From Thermoanaerobaculia bacterium (GTDB taxonomy: Bacteria > Acidobacteriota > Thermoanaerobaculia > Multivoradales > Multivoraceae), in the NCBI GenBank assembly GCA_963666565.1, contig OY762911.1, forward strand, positions 3,072,001-3,136,000: a DNA stretch of 64,000 nucleotides. The letters are read 5' to 3'. The notes under the pieces were generated by a model. It was not told where the DNA came from. It made no database searches and saw only the letters and a list, made by a program, of their open reading frames with translations. Shown in pieces: positions 39,850 to 61,803 of this stretch; position 1 is the first letter of the stretch, and every line of letters starts with the position of its first letter. Made by a program: the position numbers and the translations under genes.

Positions 39850-39914
39850 AAGGGGAGATCCCCTCGTTCAGGCGCCTCGGGCGTGGGCCGCGACTTGGGG
39901 ATAGTCTCATCTGC

Positions 39915-42703: not shown

Positions 42704-44257
42704 GTGGGCGGCAGCGAGGCTGACCTGGACGGAAACCTTGGACCCCGGGGCACGCCAGCCGACGGCTGCGTGGCCGGGGGAGGACGTGGCATTCTGGGCC
42801 TGAGTGGCCTGACGCCGGCTCTTCTCGCGCTGGCCTTCGGCGCGCCGCTCGCCGCCGACGATCCGAACCCGACCCGCAACCGCGTGGCGGCGGCCGCGGA
42901 CCTCCCGGTGACCTGGGACGTTGCCGCCGGCGACGGCGTGCTGTGGTCCGCCGAACTCGGCACGACGACCTACGGCGGGCCGACGATCGCTGGCGACCTC
43001 GTCGTCGTCGGCACGAACAACGAGCGCCCGCGCGACCCGGCCGCGACCGGCGACCGCGGCATCCTGATGGCCTTCGACCGGCGCGACGGCGGCTTCCGCT
43101 GGCAGATCGCCCACGAGAAACTGGCGGTCGGCGAGGTGAACGACTGGCCGCTCCAGGGCGTTTGCTCCACGCCGTCCTTCGACGGCGAGCGCCTCTACTA
43201 CGTCTCGAACCGTGCCGAACTGGTGGCCGTCGACCTGGCCGGCGAGACGGTCTGGTCGCTCGACATGATCGCCGAGTGGGGCGTGTTTCCGAAGCACATG
43301 GCGGCTTCCACGCCGCTGGCCGCGGGCGGACTCGTGTTCGCGTCGACCAGCAACGGCGTGACCGACGACGGACGGATTCCGGCCCCGGCCGCGCCGAGCT
43401 TTGTCGCGGTGGACCGCGCCACGGGCGCGCCGGTCTGGACCGACGCCGGCCCCGGCGCCGGCCTGATCGACGGCCAGTGGGGAAGTCCGGCCCTGGCGGC
43501 TGCCGGCGGCGCCGCCGGCCAATCGGCAAACCGGGGGCAGGTCGTCTTCCCGGGCGGCGACGGCCGCCTGTACGCGTTCGATCCGGCGACGGGCGAGTCT
43601 CTGTGGCGCTTCGACGGCAACGCGGCCGCTGCCGGTCAGGGTGGGGAAGCTGGCCGCAGTCGGAGCTTCACTTCGCCGCCTGCGGCGGCAGCGGGTCGGA
43701 AGACCCGCGCACCCAGCGACGCTGCCGTGCCGACCGCCCGTGCCGACCGCGCCGAGTCCGGCCACGCCTTCGTCGCCACGCCGGTGCTGCACGAGGACAC
43801 CGTCTACATCGCGATGGGCCGCGACCCGGAGGTCTCCATCCGGCCCGGCGTCCTCTGGGCCATCGACGCCGGCAGCCGCGGCGCCGCCGCCTCGAGCCGC
43901 GTCCGGTGGCGCTTCGAGGACCCGGACTTCGGCCGCGCCATCGCCACCGTCGCGGTCGCCGGCGGCATCGTCTACGCCGCGGACCTGAACGGCTTCCTGT
44001 TCGCTCTCGATGCGGACACCGGCGAGAAGTTGTGGGTCTACGATGCCCTGGCGCCGTTCTGGAGTTCGCCCCTGGTCGCGGACGGGAAGGTCTACGCCGC
44101 CGACACGGAGGGCGACGTGACAGTGCTCCGGCACGGCCGGACGCTCGACGTGCTGGCCGAGAACGTCATGCCGGGACCGGTCTACGCCTCGCCCTCGACC
44201 GACGGCGCCGCGCTGTACGTCGCCACCAGCGAGACGCTCTACGCGCTGGGCCTTTGA
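42704..44257 (+). CDS. Secreted PQQ-like (BamB-type) beta-propeller protein 1
   Basis: Repeats of type AFDxxTGxxxW; VNDWPLQGVCSTP; signal-like LLALAFGAPLAA. Start uncertain (42704 or 42770). Confidence 0.85.
   Translation: MGGSEADLDGNLGPRGTPADGCVAGGGRGILGLSGLTPALLALAFGAPLAADDPNPTRNRVAAAADLPVTWDVAAGDGVLWSAELGTTTYGGPTIAGDLVVVGTNNERPRDPAATGDRGILMAFDRRDGGFRWQIAHEKLAVGEVNDWPLQGVCSTPSFDGERLYYVSNRAELVAVDLAGETVWSLDMIAEWGVFPKHMAASTPLAAGGLVFASTSNGVTDDGRIPAPAAPSFVAVDRATGAPVWTDAGPGAGLIDGQWGSPALAAAGGAAGQSANRGQVVFPGGDGRLYAFDPATGESLWRFDGNAAAAGQGGEAGRSRSFTSPPAAAAGRKTRAPSDAAVPTARADRAESGHAFVATPVLHEDTVYIAMGRDPEVSIRPGVLWAIDAGSRGAAASSRVRWRFEDPDFGRAIATVAVAGGIVYAADLNGFLFALDADTGEKLWVYDALAPFWSSPLVADGKVYAADTEGDVTVLRHGRTLDVLAENVMPGPVYASPSTDGAALYVATSETLYALGL
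43673..43716 (+). repeat. REP-like element, family 1, in frame inside a CDS
   Basis: CGCCGCCTGCGGCGGCA-GCGGGTC-GGAA-GACCCGC-GCACCCAG, encoding PPAAAAGRKTRAPS. Confidence 0.9.
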
Positions 44258-44373
44258 TACCGTTGCCGCCCTTCGGCGGCGGGACCGCGGCGGCCGGCCG
44301 TCGCGAACGGCCCCGCCAAGCGCTTCGCCGCCGGCATTCCCACACGCTCATTCGACCAACGGACTGGATCACC

Positions 44374-45813
44374 ATGACGTCTCGACTCTCTCCGCTCACG
44401 GCGCTCCTCCTCGCAGCCGTCGCCTCGGCGCCGCTCGCGGCGGCGGATCCCGAACCGCCGGCCATGTTCGGCAACACGCCGGCCCGCAACATGGTGTCGA
44501 GCGCGACGAACCTGCCGACCGCCTGGGACGTGAGATCCGGAGAGAACGTCCTCTGGCGGGCCAAGGTCGGCTCCCAGACCTATGCCGGCCCGGTGGTTCA
44601 CGGCGGCCGGGTCTACGCCGGAACGAACAACGAGGGGCTGCGCCGGCCCGGCATCGAGGGCGACAAGGGCGTCCTCGTCGCGCTGGACAAGGAGACCGGC
44701 CAGCTCCTCTGGCAGGCCACCCACGACAAGCTCGGCGCCGGCCGGGTCAACGACTGGCCGCTCCAGGGCATCTGCTCGACGCCCTACGTCGAGGACGAGC
44801 GCGTCTACTACGTATCCAACCGGGCGACGGTCGTCGCCGCCGACGTGGACGGCTTCCGGGACGGCGTGAACGACGGGATGACGGACGAGCAGTACCGGGA
44901 GGAGCTCGACGCGGACATCGTGTGGGAGTACGACATGATCGGCGAACTCGACGTGTTCCCGCACAACCTGGCCGCCGGGTCGCCCCTGGTCGTCGGCGAC
45001 CTCCTGTTCACGGTCACCGGCGCCGGCGTCGACGAGGGGCACATCAACCTGCCCTCGCCGGCCTCCCCGGCCTTCATCGCGCTCGACAAGAACACCGGCG
45101 AGCTGGTCTGGGAGAGCATCGACAGCAGCGACGCCGTCCTGCACGGCTCCTGGTCGAACCCGGGCTACGGCGTGATCGACGGCCAGCCCCAGATCGCCTT
45201 CCCGGGCGGCGACGGCTGGCTCTACACCTACGAGCCGGCGACCGGCAATTTGCTGTGGAAGTTCGATCTGAACCCCAAGGACTCGATCTGGGAACTCGGC
45301 GGCGCCGGCACCCGCAACAACATCATCTCGACGCCGGTCTTCTACAACAACCGCTTCTACCTCGGCGTCGGCCAGGATCCGGAGCACGGCGAGGGTCCGG
45401 GCCACCTCTACGCCATCGACGCGAACGTCGAGGGAGACGCGACCGGCAGCGCCGCCCTCTGGCACTTCGGCAACGAGGACTTCAACCGGACGATCTCGAC
45501 CGCTGCGATCGCCGACGGCCTGCTCTACATCCCTGATCTGAGCGGCTTCCTCTACGTGCTGGACGTCGAGACCGGAGAGCATCTCTGGACCCACGACACC
45601 TTCGCCGCCGTCTGGGGTTCGGCCTTCGTTGCGGACGGCAAGGTCTACCTCGGCGACGAGGACGGCGACATCGTCGTGCTGGAACACGGTCGCGAGGAGA
45701 AGGTCATCGCCGAGCACAACATGGGCTCGGCCGTGTACACGACGCCGGTCGCGGAGGACGGGAGAATCTACGTGGCGACCCGTTCGGACGTGTTCGCCAT
45801 CGGTTCGGACTGA
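44374..45813 (+). CDS. Secreted PQQ-like (BamB-type) beta-propeller protein 2, paralog of protein 1
   Basis: Signal peptide MTSRLSPLTALLLAAVASAPLAA; MFGNTPARNMV, VNDWPLQGICSTP, ALDKNTGELVW, FPGGDGWLY. Confidence 0.9.
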   Translation: MTSRLSPLTALLLAAVASAPLAAADPEPPAMFGNTPARNMVSSATNLPTAWDVRSGENVLWRAKVGSQTYAGPVVHGGRVYAGTNNEGLRRPGIEGDKGVLVALDKETGQLLWQATHDKLGAGRVNDWPLQGICSTPYVEDERVYYVSNRATVVAADVDGFRDGVNDGMTDEQYREELDADIVWEYDMIGELDVFPHNLAAGSPLVVGDLLFTVTGAGVDEGHINLPSPASPAFIALDKNTGELVWESIDSSDAVLHGSWSNPGYGVIDGQPQIAFPGGDGWLYTYEPATGNLLWKFDLNPKDSIWELGGAGTRNNIISTPVFYNNRFYLGVGQDPEHGEGPGHLYAIDANVEGDATGSAALWHFGNEDFNRTISTAAIADGLLYIPDLSGFLYVLDVETGEHLWTHDTFAAVWGSAFVADGKVYLGDEDGDIVVLEHGREEKVIAEHNMGSAVYTTPVAEDGRIYVATRSDVFAIGSD

Positions 45814-45901
45814 GAGGCGCTCCGAGCCACCGGTTGGCTGTGGAACTCGCGCGAGCAGCCTGCGGCCGGGATCCGGTTGCGCCGGAGAGGCCGGGCGCTC
45901 G

Positions 45902-47272
45902 ATGAGCCAGGCAGGAGGCGTCGCGACGGCCGTGGGCATCAAGAGAGGTCAGCGTCCGCTCCCGGCGGAGGACTCCTGGAGCGTGGACACCGCGCCGGGC
46001 CGCGTTCTGTTCGGCGCCGGGGTGATCGACCGCCTCGGCGAACTCGTCCGGGAGCGGGGCGGGGGCCGCGTCCTCGTGGTGACGGATCCCGGCATCGTCG
46101 CCTCGGGTCACGCCGACCGGGCCGCGGAGTCGCTGCGGAGCGCGGGTCTCGAGGTCGCCGTCTTCGACGCCGTCGAGGAGAACCCGGGCGAGCGTCATGT
46201 AGCGGCCGCCGCTGCCGCCGCCGCGGAGCACCGGGCCGGCTTTCTCGTCGGCCTCGGCGGCGGTTCCGCGATGGACTGCGCCAAGGGCGCCAACTTCGTG
46301 TTCACCAACGGCGGCCGGATGGAGGACTACTGGGGCTTCGGCAAGGCCTCGAAGCCGATGCTGCCGTCGGTCGGCGTTCCGTGTACCGCCGGCACCGGCA
46401 GCGAGTCCCAGTCGTTCGCCGTCATCTCGCGGGAAGACGACCACCGCAAGATGGCCTGTGGCGACCCGAAAGCCCGGTTCGCGGCCACGCTGCTCGATCC
46501 GGAGCTCGTGCGGACGGCGCCGCCCGAGGTCATGGCCGCGACCGGCCTGGACGCCCTGTCGCACGCGCTCGAGAGCTTCGTCTGCACCGCGGCCAACCCG
46601 TACGCCCGGATGTTCGCGTCGGAGGGCTTCGCGCGGCTGCTGCGGGGGTTCGAGGCGGTGGTCGAGGCGCAGCCGGGCGGCGGTGCTTCCGGCGAAGAGG
46701 CCGCCAGGCGGGAAGCCGGCGCCGGCAGCGAAGCAACCGAGGCCGGCAACGGAGCAGCCGGGGCCGCCAGCGGAGAAGCCGAGACCGGAGGTGACTCGGC
46801 CGGCGCCGGTGGCGGAGAAGCCAAGGCCGGCTCGACCGAACTCTGGGGCGAGATGCTGCTCGGCGCCCACTTCGCCGGGGCCGCCATCGAGGCGTCCATG
46901 CTCGGCGCCGCCCACGGGCTGGCCAATCCGCTCACCGCTCGCTACGACATCACTCATGGCGTGGCGGTGGCCGTCATGCTCGACCACGTCGTGCGGTTCA
47001 ACGGCGCGGCCGCCGGCGCCGCCTACGGCGACCTTGCGCGGCTTGCCTTCGCCGGCTCGGCGGACAACGGCGGCGCCGCCGAGCGGCTGGCCGGGCTGTG
47101 GGCTGGCCTGCGGGACCGCGCGGGCGTCGCGGCCAGATTGCGCGACCTGGACGTCCGGGAGGCCGAACTCCAGCTTCTGGCGTCGCAGGCGGCCGAGCAG
47201 TGGACGGCACAGTTCAACCCGCGGGCGGCCTCCCCCTCCGATATGCTGGCGCTCTATCGGGCGGCGTTCTGA
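45902..47272 (+). CDS. Iron-containing alcohol dehydrogenase family protein
   Basis: LVVTDPG, GLGGGSAMDCAKG, PCTAGTGSE, GLDALSHALES, GAAHGLANPL..ITHGVAV (metal-binding D/H/H/H). Confidence 0.93.
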   Translation: MSQAGGVATAVGIKRGQRPLPAEDSWSVDTAPGRVLFGAGVIDRLGELVRERGGGRVLVVTDPGIVASGHADRAAESLRSAGLEVAVFDAVEENPGERHVAAAAAAAAEHRAGFLVGLGGGSAMDCAKGANFVFTNGGRMEDYWGFGKASKPMLPSVGVPCTAGTGSESQSFAVISREDDHRKMACGDPKARFAATLLDPELVRTAPPEVMAATGLDALSHALESFVCTAANPYARMFASEGFARLLRGFEAVVEAQPGGGASGEEAARREAGAGSEATEAGNGAAGAASGEAETGGDSAGAGGGEAKAGSTELWGEMLLGAHFAGAAIEASMLGAAHGLANPLTARYDITHGVAVAVMLDHVVRFNGAAAGAAYGDLARLAFAGSADNGGAAERLAGLWAGLRDRAGVAARLRDLDVREAELQLLASQAAEQWTAQFNPRAASPSDMLALYRAAF

Positions 47273-47329
47273 GGCCGCCCCGGCCCCGCGAAGACACCCC
47301 TCGACCGGAAGATCAGCCGAGACCCTGCC

Positions 47330-48616
47330 GTGCCGGAGAGTCGAACCCCAGGGAAGCGCGCTGTCCGGCGCCGTCCGCACGGGCAGGGGACGGTCCTGGC
47401 CGCGGCGCTGGCCGGTCTGTTCGGCCTGCCGATCCTGCTCGGCTCGGCCTTTCTCTCCGGCGCCGGGTTCGTGCCCGGCTCGGCAGTCCTTCCCGGCGCC
47501 GACGCCGGGGCGGACGACGCCGAAGACCGGCAGGCGCCCGCGGCCGGTTCTCTCTTCCGGCCCTCCGCCGATTCCTGGCCGGTCTTTCGGGGCAACCTGC
47601 TCGGCACCGGCGTCGCCGGCACCACGTTGCCGGACGATCCGAAACTGCTGTGGACCTTCGACACGGAGAGCGAGATCGAGGGCACGGCGGCGATCGTGGG
47701 CGGCGTCGTTTACTTCGGCGACTTCGAGGGCCGCGTCTACGCCCTGACCCTGGCCGGGGGCAGGGAGCTTTGGCGCTTCGAGGCCGGCACGCCGATCAAG
47801 GCGCCGGTATCCGTCTTCGACGGCGTCGTCTACGTCGGCGACGAGTACGGCTTCGTCTACGCGCTGGACGCCGCCACCGGGGAGCAGCAGTGGAGGTTCG
47901 AGACGCTGGGCGAGATCTACGCCGGCGTTTCTCTCTACGAGTCGCCCGAGGGAGGGAACCGCCTGCTCGTGGGCTCCTACGACAACTCGCTCTACTGCCT
48001 GGACCGGGCCAGCGGCGAGAAGGTGTGGCAGGTCGAGACGGAGGGCTACGTCCACGGGACGCCGGCGATCGCCGGCGGGCTGACCACCGTGTCCGGCTGC
48101 GACGGCTTCCTGTGGCTGATCGACATCGAGTCGGGCGAGACGGTCCAGAAGATCAACCTGCACGGGCAGGCCGCGTCGAGCCCGGCGGTGGTGGGGAGCA
48201 TGGCCTACGTGGCCACCTACGAGAACGAAGTCCTCGCGATCGACCTCGAGAAGCGCGAGGTCGCCTGGGCCTACGAGCACGAGGTGCGCAAGTTCCCCTT
48301 CTACGCCTCGGCGGCGGCGGACGACGAGATCGTCGTCATCGGCGGGCGGGACAAGATCGTCCACGCCCTCGATCCCCGAACCGGCGAGCGGCAGTGGGAG
48401 TGGAACAGCGGCGCGCGGCTCGACTCCTCGCCGGTCATCGTGGGCGACCGGATCTTCCTGGGCTCGAATCGCGGCCCCGTCCTTGCCCTCGACAAGGCGA
48501 CGGGCGAGCCGGTGTGGGAGTTCGACACCGGCTCGGCGATCGTGGCCTCGCCCGCCGTGGCCGCGGAGCGCCTCGTCATCGGCAGCCTCGACGGCACTCT
48601 GTACTGCTTCGGTTGA
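47330..48616 (+). CDS. PQQ-like (BamB-type) beta-propeller protein 3
   Basis: WPVFRGN..TG followed by about 8 regular blades (VYxGxxxGxVYALDxxTGxxxW), ending DGTLYCFG. Confidence 0.9.
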   Translation: MPESRTPGKRAVRRRPHGQGTVLAAALAGLFGLPILLGSAFLSGAGFVPGSAVLPGADAGADDAEDRQAPAAGSLFRPSADSWPVFRGNLLGTGVAGTTLPDDPKLLWTFDTESEIEGTAAIVGGVVYFGDFEGRVYALTLAGGRELWRFEAGTPIKAPVSVFDGVVYVGDEYGFVYALDAATGEQQWRFETLGEIYAGVSLYESPEGGNRLLVGSYDNSLYCLDRASGEKVWQVETEGYVHGTPAIAGGLTTVSGCDGFLWLIDIESGETVQKINLHGQAASSPAVVGSMAYVATYENEVLAIDLEKREVAWAYEHEVRKFPFYASAAADDEIVVIGGRDKIVHALDPRTGERQWEWNSGARLDSSPVIVGDRIFLGSNRGPVLALDKATGEPVWEFDTGSAIVASPAVAAERLVIGSLDGTLYCFG

Positions 48617-48633
48617 GGGAGGGGTCGCTGGAG

Positions 48634-50019: not shown

Positions 50020-50026
50020 CAACGGA

Positions 50027-50098
50027 CGCCGGCCTCACGGCCGGCGCGACCTTCTGGCCGCCTTCGACGCAGGCGGGTCAGAAGACCCGCGTACCCAG
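50027..50098 (+). repeat. Composite multi-hairpin REP unit between convergent genes
   Basis: CGCCGGCC-TCAC-GGCCGGCG (50027-50046), a degenerate GCCGCCTTCG hairpin, then the REP at 50073-50098; matches the right half of the 61581 element. Confidence 0.8.
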
Positions 50099-50117
50099 CT
50101 CCGACGCACCCGGTGGG

Positions 50118-52517: not shown

Positions 52518-52692
52518 CGGCAGGTACCTCTCGTGACTGGAAGGTGGGCGCGACGGGCGACTGGAAGAACTCGCCGCGCGCGCAGCGGCGGCAGGCTACA
52601 ACAAACGGGACTACGTGCCGAAGGCGGTTCGGGTTGCCCGTGCGGCGGTTCGCCGGTGGCCGCCGCCGATGCTCTGCCGTAGACTCCCCGCC

Positions 52693-54009: not shown

Positions 54010-54032
54010 GCCGGAAGTCCGCGGGCGGGTTG

Positions 54033-54284
54033 ATGGCGAAGCGAGCGGTCCGGGTCACGGCGTACGCGGCGTTGCCGGCGCTGTACCTGCTGCACAACGA
54101 TCTTTGGCTCTGGGACGACCCGGGCCGATTCCTGGGTCTGCCGGTCGGGTTGTCGTACCACGTCCTGTTCTCGGCGGCGGTGGTGCTCGCCATGTGGCGG
54201 CTGGTGCGCGTCGCCTGGCCGGGCGACACGCTCGCCGAGCTGGCGGGGTCTCCTGACGACGGCGGCGCGGAGGGCGCGGAGTGA
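54033..54284 (+). CDS. Small two-TM membrane protein (DUF3311-like symporter partner)
   Basis: LYLLHNDLWLWDDPGRFLGLPVGLSYH; GTGA overlap with the symporter. Confidence 0.8.
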   Translation: MAKRAVRVTAYAALPALYLLHNDLWLWDDPGRFLGLPVGLSYHVLFSAAVVLAMWRLVRVAWPGDTLAELAGSPDDGGAEGAE

Positions 54285-55747
54285 CGCTCGCGGTCATCTT
54301 CGCCTACCTCGCGGCGGTGCTGTCGATCGGGGTCTGGAGCAACCGGCGCCTGGCCGCGACAGGCGAGGACTTCTTCGTCGCCGGCCGGACGATCGGGCCG
54401 TTCGTCCTCCTGATGACGCTGTTCGGTACCCACATGACGTCCTTCGCGCTGCTCGGCGCCTCGGCGGAGTCGTACCGCGTCGGCATCGGCGTCTTCTCGC
54501 TGATGGCGTCGTCATCGGCGCTGATGGTGCCGGTCGTCTTCTTCTTCGTCGGCACGCGGGTATGGGCGGTGGGGCGGCGACTGGGGCTGCTGACCCAGGT
54601 TCAGTTCGTTCGCGCCCGCTGGGGTTCCGACGGCGTGGGCCTGCTGCTGTTCGTCGTGCTCGTCCTCCTGCTGCTGCCGTACCTGCTGATCGGCGTGATG
54701 GGCGGCGGCGTGGTCCTCGGCCAGATCACGGACGGGGCGGCGCCGTCGTGGCTCGGCAGCCTGCTCGTGTCGGGAGTCGTCATCGGCTACGTGACGAGCG
54801 GGGGGCTGCGCGGCACCGCCTGGGTCAACACGTTCCAGACCGCGATGTTCATGCTGCTCGGGGCGGTGACGGCGGTGCTGATCGTGACGAAACTGGGCGG
54901 CGTGGGCGCGGCGCTCGACCGGGTCGCGGAGAGCCGGCCGGAGCTGCTGGTGCGGGGCGACGCGATCCACCCGCTGCGGCTTCTCAGCTACACCCTGATC
55001 CCGCTGTCGGTGGGGACCTTCCCGCACATCTTCGCGCACTGGCTGTCGGCGAAGCGGGCGGCCACCTTCAAGGCGCCGATCGTCCTGTATCCGGTCTGCA
55101 TCGCGGCGGTCTGGATTCCCAGCGTGCTCCTCGGGCTGTTCGGGAACATCGACTTTCCGGGGCTCGACGGCGCGGAGTCGAACGCGGTCCTCGTCCGGAT
55201 GATCGCGCTCTACGCGCCCGAACTGCTCGCGGGCCTGCTGGGCGCCGGCGTGTTCGCGGCCATCATGTCGTCGCTCGACTCGCAGTCGCTTTCCCTGGGC
55301 GCGATGTTCACGCAGGACATCGTGCGGCACTACCGCTGGGGCGGCGACCTGAGCGAGGCGCGGCAGGTGCGCCTGGGCCGGCTGTTCGTCGTCGGCGTCG
55401 TGGCGGCGGTGTTCGTGCTGTCGCTGGTTGCCGAGCGCAGCATCTTCGCGCTCTCGGTGTGGTCGTTCACGGGGTTCGCGTCGCTGCTGCCGGTGGTGGT
55501 GGCCGCGCTTTACTGGCGCCGCAGCACGGCGGCGGGAGCGGGCGCGGCCATCCTCGCGACGATCGCCCTGTGGACCTGGTTCTTCCTGCGCGGAATCGGC
55601 GATCCGGACTACAGCGTCGGCGGCACGGGCGTCATGCCTGTCGCCGTGGTGTTCGCGGGTTCCGCCGCGGCGATGATCGTCGTCTCCCTCCTGACCAGGC
55701 CGCCCGTTACCGAGCGGGTGGAGCGCTTTGTCGGGCAGCCCCGATGA
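54281..55747 (+). CDS. Sodium:solute symporter family protein
   Basis: EDFFVAGRTIGP, YVTSGGLRGTAWVNTFQ, FAAIMSSLDSQ; about 13 TM helices. Confidence 0.93.
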   Translation: MTLAVIFAYLAAVLSIGVWSNRRLAATGEDFFVAGRTIGPFVLLMTLFGTHMTSFALLGASAESYRVGIGVFSLMASSSALMVPVVFFFVGTRVWAVGRRLGLLTQVQFVRARWGSDGVGLLLFVVLVLLLLPYLLIGVMGGGVVLGQITDGAAPSWLGSLLVSGVVIGYVTSGGLRGTAWVNTFQTAMFMLLGAVTAVLIVTKLGGVGAALDRVAESRPELLVRGDAIHPLRLLSYTLIPLSVGTFPHIFAHWLSAKRAATFKAPIVLYPVCIAAVWIPSVLLGLFGNIDFPGLDGAESNAVLVRMIALYAPELLAGLLGAGVFAAIMSSLDSQSLSLGAMFTQDIVRHYRWGGDLSEARQVRLGRLFVVGVVAAVFVLSLVAERSIFALSVWSFTGFASLLPVVVAALYWRRSTAAGAGAAILATIALWTWFFLRGIGDPDYSVGGTGVMPVAVVFAGSAAAMIVVSLLTRPPVTERVERFVGQPR

Positions 55748-55760
55748 CTCGCGCGCGGAC

Positions 55761-57143
55761 ATGTCCACGCACGGCGCGGGACGCGCCGCACGGGTGCATC
55801 CCGTGACCGCTACCGACCAGCCGTTGCGCATCGCCTACCTGGCGGCGGGCGCCGGCGGCATGATCTGCGGGAGCTGCATCCACGACAACGCGCTGGTCCG
55901 CGAACTCCAGCGGCGGGGGCACAACGCGCTGCTGCTGCCCATCTACACGCCGCTGCGGACCGACGAGGAGAACGTGAGCTACGGCCGCATCTTCTACGGC
56001 GCGGTCAACATCTACCTGGAGCAGAAGGTGCCGCTGTGGAGCCGGGCGCCGGCGGCGGTCCGCCGATTGCTCGACAGCCCGCGGCTGCTCGCCCGGGTCA
56101 CCCGGTCGGCGTCTGCGACCGACGCCAACCAGCTCGGCGAGCTCGCGCTGTCCATGGTGCGGGGCGAGGAGGGGCGTCAACTGGCGGAACTCAAGGGCCT
56201 GGCGACGTGGCTGGCCGGCGAGTTCCGGCCGGACGTGGTCCACCTGACGAACTCGATGCTCGTGGGCATGGCCCACTGGCTGCGCGAGGCGCTCCCGGAG
56301 ACGCTGATCGTCTGCGGCCTTCAGGGCGAGGACATCTTCCTCGAGGACCTGGACGAACCCCACAAGTCCCTGGTGGTCGAGGAGATGCGGAAGCGGGTGC
56401 GCGAGGCCGACGTGCTGGTCGCGCCGAACGACTACTACGCTGCGACGATGGCGGAACTGCTGGAACTGCCGCGAGCGGACATCGACGTGGCGCGGCTCGG
56501 CATCGAACTGGAAGGGCACGGGGGCCGCGAGGCGGAGCCTCCCGAGTCGCCCCTCGTCATCGGCTACCTGGCGCGGATGTGCCCCGAGAAGGGGTTCCAC
56601 CTCGCCGCCGAGGCGTTCCGGGAACTGAGCGAGCGTCTGGGGCCGGGCCGCGTCCGCTTCCGCGCCGCCGGCTACCTCGGCGGCCGCGACGAGGCGTACT
56701 TCGAGGAGCAGCGGCGGCGAATCGCCGGCTGGGGCCTCGAACCGCACTTCGACTGGCTGGGCGAGGTCTCCCGCGAGGAGAAGATCGAGCTGCTGTGCAG
56801 CCTGCACGCGCTCGTGCTGCCGACCGTCTACCGCGAGGCGAAGGGCCTGCCGGCGCTCGAGGCGATGGCGAACGGCGTCCCCGCCGTGCTGCCCGACCAC
56901 GGCTCGTTCCCCGAGATGCTGGAACGGACCGGCGGCGGCACGCTGGTGCCGGCCGGCGACCCGTCGGCCCTGGCCGACGCCGTCGAGCAGTTGGCCGGCG
57001 ACGCGGAGCGCAGGCGCCACCTCGGCCGCTCGGGAAAGGACGGCGTCCGCCGCCACTACTCCGCCGAACTGATGGCGGCGGACACGCTGGCCGCCTACCG
57101 GCGGGGAATCGAGCGCCGCCCACCGGGTGCGCGGGTCTTCTGA
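55761..57143 (+). CDS. Glycosyltransferase family 4 protein
   Basis: LRIAYLAAG, RPDVVHL, IGYLARMCPEKG, YREAKGLPALEAMANGVP (EX7E). Start 55761 or 55803. Confidence 0.92.
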   Translation: MSTHGAGRAARVHPVTATDQPLRIAYLAAGAGGMICGSCIHDNALVRELQRRGHNALLLPIYTPLRTDEENVSYGRIFYGAVNIYLEQKVPLWSRAPAAVRRLLDSPRLLARVTRSASATDANQLGELALSMVRGEEGRQLAELKGLATWLAGEFRPDVVHLTNSMLVGMAHWLREALPETLIVCGLQGEDIFLEDLDEPHKSLVVEEMRKRVREADVLVAPNDYYAATMAELLELPRADIDVARLGIELEGHGGREAEPPESPLVIGYLARMCPEKGFHLAAEAFRELSERLGPGRVRFRAAGYLGGRDEAYFEEQRRRIAGWGLEPHFDWLGEVSREEKIELLCSLHALVLPTVYREAKGLPALEAMANGVPAVLPDHGSFPEMLERTGGGTLVPAGDPSALADAVEQLAGDAERRRHLGRSGKDGVRRHYSAELMAADTLAAYRRGIERRPPGARVF

Positions 57144-57250
57144 CCCGCTGCCGCCAAAGGCGGCCAGGAACCGGGTGCGCGGGTCTTCCGACCCGCCGCC
57201 GCCAAAGGCGGCCAGGAACCGGGTGCGCGGGTCTTCCGACCCGCTGCCGC
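57123..57250 (-). repeat. Three tandem REP units, 48-bp period
   Basis: CCGGGTGCGCGGGTCTTCYGACCCGC at 57123, 57171 and 57219 with near-identical linkers; the GT4 stop codon lies in the first copy. Confidence 0.95.
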
Positions 57251-57266
57251 GCTAGCATCGTCCCGT

Positions 57267-57980
57267 ATGACTGAATCCCTTCGCTTCGAACGGGTCGCGA
57301 AGTCCTACCCGACGGAAGCCGGCGCCGTCGAGGTTCTGCGCGGAATCTCGTTCCGCCTGGAAGCGGGCGAAGCGATGGCGGTCACCGGACCGTCCGGCAG
57401 CGGCAAGAGCACGCTGCTGCACCTCGCGGCGACGCTGGAGACGCCGACCGCGGGCAGCATCCGCATCGGCGGCGAGGCCGCTCACGATTTGCCGGAACGG
57501 GAACTGGCGGCGTTCAGGAGCCGGCGCGTGGGCCTGGTGTTCCAGGATCACTACCTGCTGCCGCAGTACACGATGCTCCAGAACGTGCTGCTGCCGACGG
57601 TGGCGGCCGGCAACGGCCGGGACGAGGGCGACGCGGAAGAGCGGGCGCGCGCCCTGCTGGAGCGCGTCGGCCTCGGCGCCCGCGTCGATCACCGGCCGGC
57701 GCAGTTATCGGGTGGCGAGCGGCAGCGGGCCGCGATCGTGCGGGCGGTGATCAACCGGCCGAGCCTGCTCCTGTGCGACGAGCCGACCGGCAACCTGGAC
57801 GCGGAGACGGCGGGCGCCGTGGCCGACCTGCTGCTCGAACTCCACGGCGAGGAAGAGAGCGCCCTGATCGTCGTCACGCACAGCCTGGAACTGGCGTCCC
57901 GGTTGCCGAGGCGGCTGGAGTTGCGCAGCGGCCTGCTGGATGAGGCGACGCCGGTCCCGCTGCCGGCGGCGGGAGACTGA
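57267..57980 (+). CDS. ABC transporter ATP-binding protein (LolD/MacB-like)
   Basis: GPSGSGKST, VFQDHYLLP, LSGGERQR, CDEPTGNLD, VTH. Confidence 0.95.
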   Translation: MTESLRFERVAKSYPTEAGAVEVLRGISFRLEAGEAMAVTGPSGSGKSTLLHLAATLETPTAGSIRIGGEAAHDLPERELAAFRSRRVGLVFQDHYLLPQYTMLQNVLLPTVAAGNGRDEGDAEERARALLERVGLGARVDHRPAQLSGGERQRAAIVRAVINRPSLLLCDEPTGNLDAETAGAVADLLLELHGEEESALIVVTHSLELASRLPRRLELRSGLLDEATPVPLPAAGD

Positions 57981-58106
57981 TGCCGTGGCGGTGGTAAGCC
58001 CCGGGGGGCCCCTGCCCAGCCTGAGCCGCAGCCGGCGGCAGCCGGCGGCGGGAGACTGAGGCCATGGCTGCCGCGCGCCCCGGCGGGCCCCTGCCCAGCC
58101 TGCGCC
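57962..58106 (+). repeat. Diverged 79-bp tandem duplication of the ATPase-permease junction
   Basis: GCCGGCGGCGGGAGACTGA at 57962 and 58041; GGGCCCCTGCCCAGCCTG at 58006 and 58085. Confidence 0.85.
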
Positions 58107-61100
58107 ACTACTGGCGCGCGAACGTCGCCGTCGTGCTGACCGCGGCGGTCGCGGCCTCCGTGCTGACCGGCGCGCTGATGGTCGGCGATTCGGTGCGCGG
58201 CAGTCTGCGCGATCTGACTCTGGACCGGCTGGGCGGTATCGATCACGCGCTGCTCGGCGCCGGCTTCTTCCGCGAGGATCTGCGGGACGAACTGGCCGCC
58301 GACGAGGAGTTCGCCGCCCGCTTCGGCCCGGTGTCGGCCGCGATCCTGATGCAGGGCAGCGTGGTGGAACCCGAGAGCGGCCGCCGCGCCGCCCGCGTCA
58401 ATGTGCAGGGGATCGACGCCGGGTTCGTCGCCTTTTTCCCGGACGCGGCGGCAGGGCTCGACCTTTCCCGCCGCGAGGGCCAGTTCTTTGCGTCGCTGGC
58501 CGTCAACCGGTCGTTGGCCGAAGCGCTCGCGGTCGAAGCCGGCGACTCCGTCGTGCTCTACCTGGAGCGGCCCAGCGAGGCGCCGCGGGCCAGCCTGATG
58601 GGGGAGAAGGACCCGGAGGACCAGTTGGAGAGCGTGCGGCTGAGCGTCTCCTCCGTCCTCGACGACGAGGGCCCCGGACGCTTCCAGTTGGCGCCCCACC
58701 AGAGCCAGCCGCTGGTCGGCTACGTGCGGCTGCGCGACCTGCAGCGGGAGCTGGACCGGCGCGGCATGGCGAACGCGCTGCTCGTGGGCGAGCGCGCCGC
58801 GGCCGGCAGCGGGGTTGCCGCCGATCCCGACTCGGCGGCGCTGGACCTCGAACGGCGGATCCGCTCCCACGCCGAGGCCGGGGACTTCAGCCTGGCGTTC
58901 GACGGCGCGGAGGATCACCTCCGGGTGACGACCTCGCAGATCGTCTTCAGCGAGGAACTCGCCGGGGCGGTGGAGGCGCTGGCGCGGGACCGGGGCGCGG
59001 AGGCGGTCGGCGTATCCACCTACCTGGCCAACCGGACCGCGGCGGAGAACGGCGGCGCCGCGCCGTACTCGACGATCGCCGCGCTCGACACGGGCCGGGC
59101 CGGGGAACTCGGCGCGCTGCGGCTTGCGGCCGGTGCGCCCGCGCCGGCGCTCGGGCCGGGCGAGGCCCTGGTCAACACGTTCCTGGCGGAGGACCTCGGC
59201 GTCGGCGCCGGCGACCGGCTCTCCATCGACTACTTCGTCGTCGGGGATCGGGAGCAACTGGTCGAGCGGACGGTCGAGGCCACCGTGGCCGGCGTCGTCG
59301 AGATGACCGGCTGGGCCGCCGACCGGAGCATGACGCCGGACTTTCCCGGCGTCGCCGACGCCGACAACATGAGCGACTGGGACCCGACCTTCCCGGTGGA
59401 TCTGAGCCGCATCCGCGACCGGGACGAGGCGTACTGGGACGAATACCGCGGAACGCCGAAGCTGTTCGTCGACCTCGACTTCGGCGCCGGGCTCTGGTCC
59501 AGCCGCTTCGGGCATCTGACCTCGTTCCGGCTGCTGCCCGGCGACGGCGCCTCGCCGGACGAACTCGGCGCCGTCCTCGAGGCCGAGGCGCCGGCGCGCA
59601 TCGCGCTCCACGCGGCGGGGCTGGCGGTCGAGCCGGTCAAGGCCACGGGGCTGCGGGGCGCCACCGGCGCGACCGACTTCGGGGGCCTGTTCGTCGGCTT
59701 CAGCCTGTTCCTGATCGTCTCGGCGGCGCTGCTGGTGGGCCTGTTCTTCCGGCTCGGCACGGAGAGCCGCGCCAACGAGATGGGCCTGTTGCTGGCGCTC
59801 GGCCACGGCGTCCGGCGGGTGCGGCGGCGCTTCCTGCTGGAGGGCGCGCTGCTCGGCGGGGCGGGCGTGCTGCTCGGCCTGGGCGGGGCGGTGCTCTACG
59901 CCGGCGCGATGATGGCCGCGCTCCGTACGCTGTGGCGCTCGGCCGTCGGGTCGAGCCATCTCTACCTCCACGTCGAGCCGCTGACGCTGGCGCTGGGCGG
60001 CGCCGGCTCGCTGCTCGTCGTGCTGTTCGCCGTGCGGGGCGCCGTCGGCCGGCTGGCCGGGGTTTCGCCAATCCGGCTGCTGCGGGGAGAGACGGTGGAA
60101 CAGCCGGCGGCCGTCGCCGCGCCGCGGCCGCGGGCGCGCTGGACCGGCATCGTCGCCGGCGCTCTGGCGTTGGCCCTGCTCGGCGGGTCGGCCGCCGCGC
60201 CGGCGTCGGCGGCGGCCTACCTGTTCTTCTCGGGCGGCGCCTGCCTGTTGGTCGCCGGGCTCGCCGCCTTCGTCCTGTGGCTGCGGCGCCGTCCGGAGGC
60301 GCCGCTTCGCGGCTGGTCGCTGCGCGCCGGATCGAGCATGGCGGCGGCCAACGCGTCGCTCAACCCGGGGCGGAGCCTGCTCTGCGCGGCGCTCGTGGCG
60401 AGCGCGTCGTTCGTCATCGTGGCCGTCGGCGCCTACGGCCTCCGGTTCGGGGAGGAGACGAGGGATCTGGACTCGGGCGCGGGCGGCTTCGACCTGGTCG
60501 CCGAGTCCGACGTCTCGATCCTCGCCGACATGACCAGCGTGGACGGCCGCTACGAACTCGGGTTCGGCAGGGACGCTTCGGATCTCGTCGGACGGAGCGA
60601 GATCGTCGCCTTCCGCACGGTGCCGGGCGACGACATCAGTTGCCTGAACCTGTTCCAGCCGGAGAGGCCGCGGCTGCTCGGCGCGCCGCCGGAGTTCGTC
60701 GAGCGCGGGGGCTTCCGCTTCCAGTCGGTGGTCGACGTGGCGGGAGAGGAGGCGTTGGGGCGCGAAGACGCGCCGCCGGCGTCGCGGCCGGACCGCCCAT
60801 CATCGGGCGATCCCGGGACGCCCTGGCGGTTGCTGGAACAGGACCTCGGTCCGGGCGTGGTACCCGCGATCGGCGACTTCAACTCGGTCATGTGGATCCT
60901 GCACTCGGGGCTGGGCCAGGGGATCGAGGTGGAGACGGAGCGCGGCGAGACGATCGAGCTGCGGCTCGTCGGGCTCCTGCGCAAGAGCGTGTTCCAGAGC
61001 GAACTCGTGATCTCCGAGGCGAACCTGGCGCGGCACTTCCCGAGCCGGACGGGGGCGTCGTACTTCCTGCTGCGAACCGAGCCGGACGAGCAGGACCGGA

Positions 61101-61573
61101 CGATGCAGGAGCTGGAGCGGACGCTCTCGGGCTTCGGCTTCGACGCGGTACCCACCGCTCAGCGGCTGCAGGCATTCCAGGCGGTCGAGAACACCTACCT
61201 CGGCACCTTCCAGACCCTGGGCGGCCTCGGGCTGCTGCTCGGCACGCTGGGGCTCTCGGTGGTGCTGCTGCGGAACCTGCTGGAGCGGCGCGGCGAACTG
61301 GCGACGATGCAGGCGATCGGCTTCTGGCGGCGCGCCCTGGCCTGGCTGGTGGTCGCCGAGAACAGCCTGCTGCTGGCGGCCGGCGTCGCGGTCGGGGCCG
61401 CGTCGGCGCTGGTCGCGGTGAGTCCGCATCTGCTTGGCGGCCATGCGCTCGTGCCGTGGCTGTCGCTGGCGCTTACCCTGCTGCTGGTGCTGGCGGCCGG
61501 CACCCTGGCGAGCCTCGCGGCGGTACGCCGCGTGACCCGCGAGGACCTTCTCCCCGCCCTCCGAGGCGGCTAA
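58064..61573 (+). CDS. Large MacB/FtsX-type ABC permease (tandem, 1169 aa)
   Basis: Two permease halves (ESRANEMGLLLALG; ERRGELATMQAIG) with large periplasmic domains; terminal LLPALRGG. Confidence 0.92.
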   Translation: MAAARPGGPLPSLRHYWRANVAVVLTAAVAASVLTGALMVGDSVRGSLRDLTLDRLGGIDHALLGAGFFREDLRDELAADEEFAARFGPVSAAILMQGSVVEPESGRRAARVNVQGIDAGFVAFFPDAAAGLDLSRREGQFFASLAVNRSLAEALAVEAGDSVVLYLERPSEAPRASLMGEKDPEDQLESVRLSVSSVLDDEGPGRFQLAPHQSQPLVGYVRLRDLQRELDRRGMANALLVGERAAAGSGVAADPDSAALDLERRIRSHAEAGDFSLAFDGAEDHLRVTTSQIVFSEELAGAVEALARDRGAEAVGVSTYLANRTAAENGGAAPYSTIAALDTGRAGELGALRLAAGAPAPALGPGEALVNTFLAEDLGVGAGDRLSIDYFVVGDREQLVERTVEATVAGVVEMTGWAADRSMTPDFPGVADADNMSDWDPTFPVDLSRIRDRDEAYWDEYRGTPKLFVDLDFGAGLWSSRFGHLTSFRLLPGDGASPDELGAVLEAEAPARIALHAAGLAVEPVKATGLRGATGATDFGGLFVGFSLFLIVSAALLVGLFFRLGTESRANEMGLLLALGHGVRRVRRRFLLEGALLGGAGVLLGLGGAVLYAGAMMAALRTLWRSAVGSSHLYLHVEPLTLALGGAGSLLVVLFAVRGAVGRLAGVSPIRLLRGETVEQPAAVAAPRPRARWTGIVAGALALALLGGSAAAPASAAAYLFFSGGACLLVAGLAAFVLWLRRRPEAPLRGWSLRAGSSMAAANASLNPGRSLLCAALVASASFVIVAVGAYGLRFGEETRDLDSGAGGFDLVAESDVSILADMTSVDGRYELGFGRDASDLVGRSEIVAFRTVPGDDISCLNLFQPERPRLLGAPPEFVERGGFRFQSVVDVAGEEALGREDAPPASRPDRPSSGDPGTPWRLLEQDLGPGVVPAIGDFNSVMWILHSGLGQGIEVETERGETIELRLVGLLRKSVFQSELVISEANLARHFPSRTGASYFLLRTEPDEQDRTMQELERTLSGFGFDAVPTAQRLQAFQAVENTYLGTFQTLGGLGLLLGTLGLSVVLLRNLLERRGELATMQAIGFWRRALAWLVVAENSLLLAAGVAVGAASALVAVSPHLLGGHALVPWLSLALTLLLVLAAGTLASLAAVRRVTREDLLPALRGG

Positions 61574-61580
61574 CTCTCCG

Positions 61581-61795: not shown

Positions 61796-61803
61796 TGGGC
61801 GGT

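Follow-up and report, generated by a model that had tools for sequence, protein, structure and literature searches.

In mycobacteria, p-hydroxybenzoic acid derivatives and phenolic glycolipids arise from a pathway that includes the chorismate pyruvate-lyase Rv2949c, the ligase FadD22 and glycosyltransferases: chorismate is converted by the lyase to 4-hydroxybenzoate, which passes to an adenylating ligase, is glycosylated and is exported to the envelope or the medium. In sponge microbiomes, a 'Halo_AMP' pseudoclass of predicted gene clusters carries a Trp_halogenase and an AMP-binding gene close together; these clusters have no MIBiG match and no known product, and their halogenase best matches Bmp2 (10.64898/2026.08.03.742642). 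In Planctomycetales strain 10988, the chorismate lyase BaaA and the adjacent halogenase BaaB have been proposed, without genetics, to provide 3,5-dibromo-p-anisic acid (10.1101/723874). As for transport, the YbbAP system is described as working with a periplasmic partner protein (PMC12646458). The locus considered below shares features with each of these systems. It occupies positions 42704–61573 of a 64,000-nucleotide stretch, hereafter the window, of the genome of a Thermoanaerobaculia bacterium of the phylum Acidobacteriota (contig OY762911.1). The region may be the reduced core of a widely conserved cluster that makes a halogenated metabolite of the hydroxybenzoate type, glycosylates it and exports it through the envelope, a tentative reading whose chances are put somewhat short of even.

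As the G+C content of the window is about 70%, genes were called by third-position G+C and then checked with Pfam and NCBIfam. The region harbours eleven plus-strand genes in two blocks, with a minus-strand TonB-dependent receptor (TBDR) between them. Block 1 consists of propeller 1, propeller 2, an iron-containing alcohol dehydrogenase (Fe-ADH), propeller 3 and a HemN-like radical SAM enzyme; block 2 of a Trp_halogenase/FAD enzyme, a DUF3311-like protein, a sodium:solute symporter (SSS), a GT4-family glycosyltransferase (GT4), an ATP-binding cassette (ABC) ATPase and a 1169-residue FtsX permease. From the likeliest start codons, the gaps between co-oriented genes measure −4 to 123 nt. A preliminary description of the region had named these families at these places and emphasised their close spacing, and it holds in both respects; it was also right in reporting no non-ribosomal peptide synthetase (NRPS), polyketide synthase (PKS), terpene cyclase or acyl carrier protein (ACP) family, since none occurs among the major open reading frames (ORFs) of the window that were scanned. 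The enzymes are devoid of hydrophobic segments and all three propellers possess N-terminal signal or anchor segments, as judged by hydropathy. No protein of the cluster reaches a curated equivalog cut-off in NCBIfam. By sequence, the protein families can be considered certain, and the specific functions are uncatalogued. A literature search returned nothing specific to this gene combination, and no characterised pathway matches it.

The conservation of the gene set is extensive. An ortholog of the radical SAM enzyme is present in all 24 sampled genomes of the same genus (83–91% identity) and in 10 of 16 sampled genomes from other genera of the order (54–61% identity), and the same neighbours surround it in the same order in all ten order-level carriers. 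A halogenase-centred scan, restricted to one genome per species, recovered at least 594 confirmed loci, the best 80 of which were analysed. These are labelled Acidobacteriota (29), Planctomycetota (24), Latescibacterota (10), Poribacteria (8), Gemmatimonadota (2) and KSB1 (1), with six other or unlabelled; seven of the 29 acidobacterial loci stem from the genus or family of the window (Candidatus Multivorans or Multivoraceae), and several loci bear the labels Gimesia, Fuerstiella or Lacipirellula. The distribution given in the preliminary description is thus borne out for Acidobacteriota and Planctomycetota; the label Verrucomicrobiota is missing among the best 80 loci, and the distribution extends further to Latescibacterota, Gemmatimonadota, KSB1 and Poribacteria. 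Within 10 kb of the halogenase, tblastn detected co-oriented orthologs of the radical SAM enzyme in 50 of the 80 loci, propeller 3 in 42, Fe-ADH in 34, SSS in 43, GT4 in 44, the ABC ATPase in 37, the giant permease in 31 and a 4HBT thioesterase in 29. The identity thresholds of these tallies were chosen by the analyst, and the counts are lower bounds because only 52 loci have both 10-kb flanks complete. Family counts based on the ORFs of related loci are likewise lower bounds, as the simple script that delivered these ORFs mis-calls some high-GC genes and produces shadow ORFs. Most loci of Planctomycetota retain the Fe-ADH, propeller, radical SAM and halogenase genes, and synteny persists across phylum labels at protein identities of 35–60%. 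Scattered orthologs with discordant phyletic profiles, which had been named as the pattern that would speak against a common pathway, are not what is seen: the genes are syntenic across phyla and phyletically concordant.

This concordance is apparent from one even draw of 201 Acidobacteriota genomes, searched for the halogenase (E ≤ 1e-60), the radical SAM enzyme (E ≤ 1e-90) and the permease (E ≤ 1e-60). The halogenase was detected in 51 genomes, the radical SAM enzyme in 49 and the permease in 59. Halogenase and radical SAM enzyme occur together in 47 genomes, with only four harbouring the halogenase alone and two the radical SAM enzyme alone. Their genes lie within 12 kb of each other in 39 of the 47, and on different contigs or far apart in the other eight. 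The permease is found in all 47 of these genomes as against 12 of the 154 others. Genomes flagged as unpublished are included in these tallies (G189 and G088 among the 47, G063 among the four with the halogenase only). The positive genomes span 31–40 genera; as related genomes are not independent, the counts overstate the case and no probability is attached to them. One genome, G080, maintains the whole cluster contiguously without the halogenase, which stands alone 565 kb away, and here the TBDR is followed directly by DUF3311 and SSS. Since the two blocks remain joined in the absence of the halogenase, they belong together independently of it, and halogenation looks like a separable, dispensable tailoring step of the system. 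The gene set is more than a chance neighbourhood: it is a real gene cluster common to at least six bacterial phyla.

The relatives disclose a fuller version of the cluster. Its first part comprises propeller 2, an AMP-ligase-like protein (∼360–400 residues), an aldehyde dehydrogenase (ALDH)-like protein (∼470 residues), Fe-ADH, propeller 3 and the radical SAM enzyme. Then follow one to three further propellers, a co-oriented TBDR, in some loci a PaaK-type ligase, the halogenase, DUF3311, SSS and GT4, and the series ends with a membrane protein of ∼160 residues, a 4HBT thioesterase, the ABC ATPase and the permease, often continuing with a further propeller and a TAXI-TRAP transporter. The latter replaces or joins the SSS in other lineages. 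In 20 loci the small membrane protein, with roughly four to five hydrophobic segments by eye, is encoded next to GT4 and 4HBT. The thioesterase, of YbgC/FadM type, sits between GT4 and the ABC genes in locus L003 and in 29 of the 80 loci. Protein Atlas returned only generic names for the AMP-like and ALDH-like proteins; among the Atlas neighbours of the latter is one cluster with LuxC in 12% of its members. Among the missing partners that the preliminary description had anticipated, the ALDH-like protein does exist in relatives, together with ligases and the thioesterase, and neither a ketoacyl synthase (KAS) nor an ACP belongs to the conserved set.

In the window, several of these members have moved or are missing. 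The AMP-like and ALDH-like genes of this genome are located ∼0.8 Mb from the cluster and a PaaK-like ligase gene ∼0.23 Mb away, where its neighbours are a propeller and a TRAP-TAXI system. The small membrane protein has a homolog encoded elsewhere in the genome, and a 38–40% identical homolog of a lyase-fold protein discussed below lies ∼370 kb from the cluster; no 4HBT ortholog was detected in this genome at E 1e-8. In the spacer between GT4 and the ABC genes, where relatives have the small membrane protein and the thioesterase, stand three palindromic units (57123–57250, by blastn) of repetitive extragenic palindrome (REP) type. As conserved members have moved or vanished and REP units have entered the cluster, the window harbours a reduced, repeat-invaded core, and the cluster is not self-contained in this genome. 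Its satellite loci lie at ∼3.354–3.360 Mb, ∼3.921–3.926 Mb and ∼2.754 Mb. In the satellite L099 (G000:C1 ∼3,921,000–3,926,200), a Rieske [2Fe-2S] protein and an ORF of ∼600 residues that has no Pfam match are encoded between the AMP-like and ALDH-like genes. Satellite L101 (G000:C1 ∼3,354,000–3,363,300) contains the PaaK-like ligase; the other strand encodes a TRAP permease in fused form, a TAXI binding protein, a PQQ_2 propeller and an M16 peptidase of 999 residues, an arrangement that mirrors the propeller-TAXI-TRAP tail of the Latescibacterota clusters.

The halogenase (52615–54009, plus strand) was recognised through Pfam, sequence motifs and PDB profiles. The GxGxxG motif (G39-x-G41-P42-x-G44) is invariant in all nine aligned orthologs, as are W247, W249, I251 and P252 of WxWxIP, the motif that defines the flavin-dependent halogenase family. 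K100, also invariant in the nine orthologs, aligns in HMMER with K76 of CndH (3e1t), the catalytic lysine. Profile searches matched nine solved halogenase entries at E values of 6e-90 to 2e-67, with 8zop as the best and CndH, Bmp2, PltA, Mpy16, ChlB4, 3nix and CmlS among the enzymes matched; scores against FixC or GGR (4e-23) and monooxygenases (1e-10 or weaker) are far lower. The CmlS equivalog cut-off of NCBIfam is not reached (175 against 900). By sequence, the protein is thus a genuine flavin-dependent halogenase of the two-component group exemplified by CndH, PltA, Bmp2 and CmlS. A maturase of protein cofactors of the QhpG/LodB type was considered and rejected: the QhpG score is 119.6 against a cut-off of 240, halogenases are matched much better, and the gaps between the genes have no room for a small precursor ORF. 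The C-terminal ∼30 residues of the window protein are encoded by two REP units (53914–54005), which give the peptide GRKTRAP twice; none of the eight orthologs aligned from other genera has this extension.

A few further observations on halogenases in relatives may be recorded. In the order-level relative G026 the ortholog contains an internal stop codon (L012, 4251–5537) and was left out of the alignment. A second, more distant radical SAM enzyme (39–41% identity) is present in four genomes (G179, G093 on C14, G212 on C90 and G190 on C271), and in G179 (C146:3299–5934) it lies directly beside a second halogenase (44% identity), which suggests a paralogous radical SAM-halogenase pair. In the same-genus genome G232 (C1:3574031–3587107) the halogenase match includes one TGA and the permease ortholog is broken into three pieces (query residues 2–768, 744–896 and 920–1168); this cluster may be decaying, or the assembly may contain errors.

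The substrate is suggested by the neighbours of the halogenase in other phyla. Between the radical SAM enzyme and the halogenase, directly upstream of the latter, 19 of the 24 Planctomycetota loci and one unlabelled locus encode a protein of 180 residues. It has no Pfam match at E 0.001, and in sequence searches two of 15 members matched the Rv2949c-like family at E 0.055, with a weak PDB match to 2nwi (E 0.029). An AlphaFold2 model (pLDDT 94) matched the same DUF98/Rv2949c-like structure 2nwi at E 9e-8 and TM scores of 0.67–0.74, and the chorismate lyase UbiC of Escherichia coli (1fw9) at E 1.8e-4; UTRA effector domains, which share this fold, matched as well. The protein is therefore modelled to fold as a chorismate lyase. 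An arginine (R74) and a glutamate (E172) are invariant, and the motifs around them presumably resemble the surroundings of the product-binding Arg and Glu of UbiC. In 20 other loci the position of this gene is occupied by a PaaK-type ligase (AMP-binding_C_2): eight of ten in Latescibacterota, both in Gemmatimonadota, six of eight in Poribacteria and four others. A small aromatic acid, and not a lipid, is what these chorismate-lyase-fold and aryl-CoA-ligase neighbours suggest.

Block 1 includes the invariant Fe-ADH-propeller-radical SAM triad. Propeller 1 (42704–44257, plus strand; PQQ_2 99.6 bits, BamB-like) starts with a hydrophobic signal segment by hydropathy and contains an in-frame REP unit at 43675–43718 (blastn). 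It is 66–74% identical in same-genus loci and in other genera matches only the ortholog of propeller 2; it is a genus-specific duplicate of the latter. Propeller 2 (44374–45813, plus strand; PQQ_2 92.3 bits), read as an exported BamB-like beta-propeller, has a signal-peptide-like N-terminus from the ATG at 44374 and is the best-conserved protein of the set, with 55–65% identity in eight of ten order-level relatives; its PDB matches are BamB and designed PQQ-repeat propellers. Propeller 3 (47330–48616, plus strand; Beta-prop_ACSF4 192.2 bits, cut-off 133; PQQ_2 176.1 bits) bears a hydrophobic transmembrane (TM) segment at residues 22–40, a membrane anchor or signal by hydropathy, and always resides between Fe-ADH and the radical SAM enzyme. 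Its PDB profile matches are BamB-type first and quinoprotein dehydrogenases only more weakly. Across the propellers, BamB and PQQ-repeat scaffolds rank at E 1e-51 to 1e-29 and quinoprotein alcohol dehydrogenases at 1e-24 or weaker, so that they seem to resemble BamB-type scaffolds more than quinoprotein dehydrogenases. An identity as dehydrogenases dependent on pyrroloquinoline quinone (PQQ) was rejected, the TIGR03075 scores being 36–103 bits against a cut-off of 480.

The Fe-ADH (ORF 45629–47272, likely start 45902, plus strand; Fe-ADH 154.3 bits plus ADH_Fe_C) has ErcA as its top NCBIfam match, at 239.9 bits and below the cut-off of 550, and in the PDB it matches methanol dehydrogenase, FucO and 1,3-propanediol oxidoreductase (E 1e-51 to 1e-46). 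It is predicted to be an ordinary cytoplasmic NAD(P) enzyme of group III. The radical SAM enzyme (48613/48634–50019, plus strand; Radical_SAM 82.8 bits) falls into the HemN-like branch (class C type): the CxxxCxxC motif and radical SAM core are present, the motif aligns with that of E. coli HemN in an alignment that covers nearly the full protein (1olt, residues 63–445, E 9e-37), and the HemN_C score of 23.2 bits stays 0.8 below the cut-off of 24. The class C methyltransferase NocN is matched at E 1.5e-26. Equivalog cut-offs are missed for ChuW/HutW (192.7 against 400), HemN (181.6 against 324.95), HemW (149.8 against 205.4) and STM4012 (175.3 against 380). As the genome contains a second HemN/HemW-like gene elsewhere (30% identical), the cluster enzyme represents an extra paralog and not the housekeeping HemN/HemW. 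Heme uptake coupled to anaerobic heme degradation by a ChuW-type enzyme was discarded on account of the unmatched ChuW cut-off, the nearly equal HemN score and the type of receptor, as the window TBDR scores 87.7 against 316.85 on TonB-hemin.

Block 2 continues beyond the halogenase with transport functions and one glycosyltransferase. The small DUF3311-like membrane protein (54006/54033–54284, plus strand), a weak match at 22.9 bits against a cut-off of 30, overlaps the start of the symporter and was found by tblastn in 30 of the 80 related loci. The SSS (54281–55747, plus strand; SSF 128.8 bits, ∼13 hydrophobic segments) is below the NCBIfam cut-offs for PanF, PutP and MctP. Together, DUF3311 and SSS make a probable carboxylate importer. 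GT4 (55728/55761–57143, plus strand) displays a GT-B family signature (Glycos_transf_1 95.2 bits, Glyco_trans_1_4 86.5 bits) and weak PDB matches to a sucrose-phosphate-synthase-like protein, BshA and MshA. The ABC ATPase (57267–57980, plus strand; ABC_tran 118.5 bits) is of the LolD/MacB type and is below the cut-offs for LolD (241.5 against 307.75), YbbA (195.2 against 336) and DevA (162.7 against 295.8). The permease (58064–61573, plus strand), encoded by a single-copy gene, comprises two FtsX stretches, ∼10 TM segments and, by hydropathy, periplasmic domains of ∼500 and ∼260 residues; it remains far under the cut-offs for ADOP (47.2 against 622.3) and DevC (25.5 against 290.35). An AlphaFold2 model of residues 36–545, periplasmic domain 1 (pLDDT 85.5), matched the periplasmic domains of LolE, LolC and MacB in Foldseek (E 1.7e-10 to 1e-6), YbbP/YbbAP (E 1.6e-5) and also YknZ, with ∼210–260 of the 510 residues aligned to known folds. 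The FtsX four-helix module thus follows a large domain of MacB/LolC fold, about half of which aligns. A LolD-like ATPase and a duplicated permease resembling LolE, LolC and MacB therefore make up a duplicated Type VII ABC system. By analogy with YbbAP, the permease would be expected to have a periplasmic partner protein. A predicted complex of periplasmic domain 1 with propeller 3 (score 0.00, mark 0.32) speaks neither for nor against binding. No MacA/DevB/HlyD adaptor was seen among the scanned ORFs of the cluster or the conserved extras of relatives, a genome-wide search dedicated to it not having been made.

The TBDR (50118–52517, minus strand; Plug and TonB_dep_Rec_b-barrel) differs in origin from the receptor at the equivalent position in relatives. 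In BLASTP it is only ∼26–29% identical to the co-oriented TBDR of relatives, and as it is also inverted it is interpreted as a replacement at the same position. The window type is limited to same-genus loci (six of seven by tblastn), and the relatives' type is present in 30 of the 80 halogenase loci. On the siderophore-receptor model TIGR01783 (cut-off 223.5) the window TBDR obtains 156.7 bits and the relatives' TBDR 258.6.

When these parts are assembled, the following sequence of events can be envisaged. A monocarboxylate of the 4-hydroxybenzoate type would enter through DUF3311/SSS, or through TAXI-TRAP in other lineages; in Planctomycetota it would be produced from chorismate by the chorismate-lyase-fold protein. 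Enzymes of the aryl-CoA-ligase type, satellite-encoded in this genome, would activate it as a thioester, and the flavin-dependent halogenase would chlorinate or brominate the aromatic acid. The HemN-like enzyme would then add a radical modification, probably of methyl type, after which the ALDH-like reductase and Fe-ADH would take the activated carboxyl to the aldehyde and then the alcohol. GT4 would attach a sugar, and the product would be released. The LolD-type ATPase and the duplicated FtsX permease, working by Type VII 'mechanotransmission', would extract or expel the product to the periplasm, where the exported BamB-like propellers and the TBDR might bind it and hand it on or take it back. 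Family assignments, clustering and compartments are observed features; what the substrate is, in which order the steps run, which way transport goes and any contact with the propellers are inferred. The anabolic nature of the scheme is suggested by the halogenase with its intact motifs, GT4 and a radical SAM enzyme nearest to ChuW/HemN and NocN. Import, modification and MacB-type export, as put forward in the preliminary description, are compatible with all the parts. The lipid or cofactor-like product delivered to the propellers that was proposed there is supported by none of the observations, and the neighbours of the halogenase, with their indication of an aromatic acid, do not favour a lipid.

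Several observations weigh against the hydroxybenzoate scheme. None of the 29 Acidobacteriota loci, by the script's ORF calls, shows a lyase-fold or PaaK-type gene beside the halogenase, the neighbours there being the TBDR upstream and the symporter downstream. The in-cluster ligases, ALDH-like gene, thioesterase and chorismate lyase are absent from the window, ligase, ALDH-like and lyase-like genes being 0.2–0.8 Mb away; as the cluster of this genome is without several members, the pathway as drawn is assembled from relatives. The Poribacteria loci mostly retain the halogenase alone, with other neighbours. The TBDR of the cluster is inverted and not orthologous to that of relatives, and a TBDR next to a symporter of the inner membrane usually marks uptake rather than export. 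BaaB is likened in its source to Bmp5, which is of another halogenase type than the group of Bmp2, CndH and PltA matched by the window enzyme. Lastly, the YbgC/FadM thioesterase of acyl-CoA type, the trio of ligase, ALDH-like protein and Fe-ADH and the Type VII ABC system fit a fatty-chain product equally well.

This last point leads to the main rival, the lipid variant of the preliminary description, which appears unlikely and yet deserves serious consideration. Here a fatty acyl group would be converted to a fatty alcohol by thioesterase, ligase, LuxC-like reductase and Fe-ADH, GT4 would form an alkyl glycoside that the small membrane protein flips, and the Type VII ABC system would pass an envelope glycolipid, heterocyst-glycolipid- or bartoloside-like and optionally halogenated and methylated, by way of the propellers to the outer membrane. 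The thioesterase type, the LuxC members (12%) in one Atlas neighbour cluster of the ALDH-like protein and the conserved ∼160-residue membrane protein beside GT4 and 4HBT in 20 loci all accord with such a product, as does the likeness of the permease domain to LolE/LolC, which extract lipid-anchored cargo, and to YbbP, for which extraction of hydrophobic compounds from the inner membrane is proposed (PMC12646458). The ATPase scores 162.7 bits on DevA, and the sponge preprint reports matches of Halo_AMP clusters to the bartoloside glycolipid-exporter cassette (10.64898/2026.08.03.742642). Against this, no KAS, ACP, PKS or acyltransferase was found in the scanned window or the conserved set, the halogenase groups with solved enzymes acting on phenols and pyrroles, and its neighbours are the chorismate-lyase-fold protein and PaaK-type aryl ligases; moreover BshA and MshA, the nearest solved relatives of GT4 albeit weak matches, use small soluble acceptors, and the DevC and DevA cut-offs are far off, with no DevB/MacA-type adaptor among the cluster ORFs scanned. 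A xanthomonadin or aryl-polyene cluster was rejected for lack of a ketosynthase and ACP.

If the receptor and the importers are given precedence over the tailoring enzymes, the cluster can be regarded as an uptake and processing system, in which an aromatic acid from the environment would be taken up by the TBDR, the periplasmic propellers and SSS or TRAP-TAXI. In the cytoplasm it would be degraded, detoxified or salvaged, with ABC/FtsX expelling a by-product. The TBDR directly ahead of DUF3311-SSS when the halogenase is absent (G080), the substitution or supplementation of SSS by TAXI-TRAP and a relatives' TBDR that passes the siderophore-receptor subfamily cut-off are in keeping with this idea, and CoA ligase, thioesterase and TRAP together resemble the layout of the 4-chlorobenzoate (fcb) catabolic operon. 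Such a role is nonetheless decidedly unlikely: a halogenase with intact motifs, GT4 and a HemN-like enzyme are anabolic or tailoring enzymes, the planctomycete chorismate-lyase-fold enzyme would draw the precursor from central metabolism rather than import, and the conserved set includes no ring-cleavage dioxygenase, dehalogenase or beta-oxidation gene.

Two further proposals are each judged very unlikely. In the first, the product would be a metallophore that leaves through the MacB-type pump, much as PvdRT secretes pyoverdine, and returns with bound metal through TBDR and symporter. The layout is indeed the classical one, with an exporter of MacB type, a TBDR and an importer of the inner membrane next to biosynthetic enzymes in one cluster, and the relatives' receptor, at 258.6 bits, exceeds the TIGR01783 cut-off of 223.5; yet the window TBDR, at 156.7 bits, falls under it, no NRPS, NRPS-independent siderophore (NIS) synthetase or known chelator-building enzyme was present among the ORFs scanned, and a phenolic glycoside with a single halogen would presumably chelate metals poorly. 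The sponge preprint, too, notes TBDTs 'without other metallophore characteristics' (10.64898/2026.08.03.742642). The second proposal sees a supply line for a periplasmic ligand or cofactor: a halogenated, radical SAM-modified aryl glycoside would be handed by the Type VII ABC system to BamB-like propellers that need it, while TBDR and symporter scavenge the compound or its precursor from neighbours. PQQ is scavenged by PqqU in a comparable manner. The weakest explanation, that two or three unrelated operons lie adjacent by descent, is barely credible, for although the permease is non-adjacent in four of the eight order-level relatives whose contigs allowed a check, halogenase and radical SAM enzyme are apart in eight of 47 genomes, Poribacteria retain the halogenase alone and an opposite-strand TBDR splits the window blocks, synteny endures across phylum labels at 35–60% identity, separated genes still co-occur (permease 47/47 against 12/154), G080 joins both blocks without the halogenase and the counts, inflated as they are by non-independence, span 31–40 genera.

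At its borders the cluster is flanked by genus-specific genes and repeats. Directly upstream, in the same orientation, lie a gene of glyoxalase/3-dmu-9_3-mt type (41076–41495, plus strand; Pfam) and an NAD-dependent epimerase or short-chain dehydrogenase/reductase (SDR; 41590–42690, plus strand; Pfam), whose end is 13 nt from the start of propeller 1. In same-genus loci (L019, L021, L023 and L025), propeller 1 is likewise preceded by the SDR or the glyoxalase gene, and neither was seen in the cluster outside this genus; they are genus-specific upstream neighbours, an addition to the gene set described earlier. The right border is a 230-bp element (61574–61803) with terminal inverted repeats. 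As the genome yields 1116 blastn high-scoring segment pairs and ∼20 near-full-length copies at 75–88% identity, it is a real dispersed repeat; the miniature inverted-repeat transposable element (MITE) that the preliminary description had placed here fits, and a composite of REP-type palindromes fits as well. Its palindromic unit recurs by blastn at five further spots within the cluster: two units at the 3′ end of the halogenase gene and three in tandem in the GT4-ABC spacer. Beyond it lies a convergent S9 peptidase gene (61804–63999, minus strand; Pfam).

Elsewhere in the window, a stretch of lower GC content (0.665–0.676) just left of the cluster (38196–41000) holds an ORF without Pfam match, a short UvrD_C helicase fragment (39172–39849) and an AAA_21/AbiEii-type ATPase (39915–41000), and may be what is left of a defence island. 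A giant surface protein is encoded by an open-ended ORF (2–7798, at least 2598 residues) with repeated He_PIG and N_BRCA1_IG Ig-like domains. A second TonB-dependent receptor of 1097 residues (11905–15198, minus strand) and a sulfatase fused to HEAT repeats (29035–31590) were also observed, as were two genes of CoA-transferase family III and one for a luciferase-like monooxygenase at 27–37 kb.

Were the hydroxybenzoate reading to prove true, the cluster would exemplify a biosynthetic system to which rule-based detection is blind, as it is devoid of an NRPS, PKS or ribosomally synthesised and post-translationally modified peptide (RiPP) core. It is widespread, being found in about one in four of the Acidobacteriota genomes sampled (47–59 of 201) and in at least five other, mostly uncultured, phyla, and several loci are labelled as sponge- or sediment-associated. 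The system would link a halogenase with an orphan HemN-like radical SAM enzyme, a new and very large Type VII ABC member and poorly understood PQQ-like propellers. It would furnish testable candidates for two things: where the small halogenated aromatics of these communities come from, and which periplasmic protein partners a new MacB-type machine. If the propellers are the recipients of the product, the 'PQQ-like repeat' propellers, which abound in Acidobacteriota, Planctomycetota, Latescibacterota and related groups, would gain a function. The window genome is a complete single contig, and its dispersed, REP-invaded version of the cluster helps to define the minimal core.

Among the known systems, the Halo_AMP clusters are the closest. 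According to the preprint, they combine a halogenase with phenylacetate-CoA-ligase-like enzymes, PQQ-like domains 'at high frequency', radical SAM enzymes, glycosyltransferases, thioesterases, TonB and ABC components, their origins include Acidobacteriota, Latescibacterota and Poribacteria, and the Bmp2 match of their halogenase is shared by that of the window. An overlap with the present cluster is probable, and the epithet 'undescribed' in the preliminary description has to be narrowed, as similar uncharacterised clusters of halogenase and AMP-ligase have now been reported from sponge-associated bacteria (10.64898/2026.08.03.742642). Differences exist nevertheless. No AMP-binding family is encoded at 41–64 kb of the window, the PaaK-like and AMP-like genes being 0.23 and 0.8 Mb away. 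An AMP-binding gene near the halogenase is present in 20 related loci and lacking in the window, which would therefore escape the Halo_AMP search rule. The featured family CC A has P450s, and none was seen in this cluster. The preprint does not report a phyletic association with a duplicated FtsX permease, the Fe-ADH-propeller-radical SAM triad or a chorismate-lyase-fold partner, and 'chorismate' occurs 0 times in its main text.

The baa locus, as described, resembles the planctomycete clusters in the placement of a chorismate-lyase-like gene beside and co-oriented with a halogenase, and in the prospect of a halogenated 4-hydroxybenzoate derivative; this adjacency is lacking in the window and present in 19 of the 24 Planctomycetota loci. 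The missing methyltransferase of baa is stated to be 'not in the locus'; in the Planctomycetota loci a HemN-like radical SAM enzyme is directly upstream of the lyase-fold gene. As described, baa is without a glycosyltransferase, ABC/FtsX, TBDR or propellers. The export machinery compares best with YbbAP-TesA, LolCDE and MacAB-TolC (PDB 9ge6, 7arh, 5udf, 3ftj): the ATPase is LolD/YbbA-like, and an N-terminal TM segment precedes a domain of LolE/LolC/MacB fold. With YbbP the permease shares two FtsX modules in one chain of ∼10 TM segments, but YbbP has ∼800 residues against 1169 here, and only ∼210–260 of the ∼500 residues of domain 1 align. Unlike these systems, the cluster has no gene for a MacA/DevB adaptor, LolA or a TesA-like protein. 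For a siderophore or metallophore locus, the window TBDR is under the receptor cut-off and no NRPS/NIS family was present in the ORFs scanned. The mycobacterial pathway is approached through the lyase-fold protein, whose best structural and Pfam leads are the DUF98/Rv2949c-like family; that pathway is without a halogenase, radical SAM enzyme, Type VII ABC system, TBDR or propellers, employs other glycosyltransferase families and belongs to an actinobacterial PKS context. As far as the searches reach, four points are new: the co-occurrence across genomes with a giant duplicated FtsX permease, the invariant Fe-ADH-propeller-radical SAM triad, the lyase-fold partner in Planctomycetota and the evidence for optional halogenation. 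The system as a whole is of a known kind, a small-molecule pathway with a stand-alone halogenase, here joined to a Type VII ABC machine.

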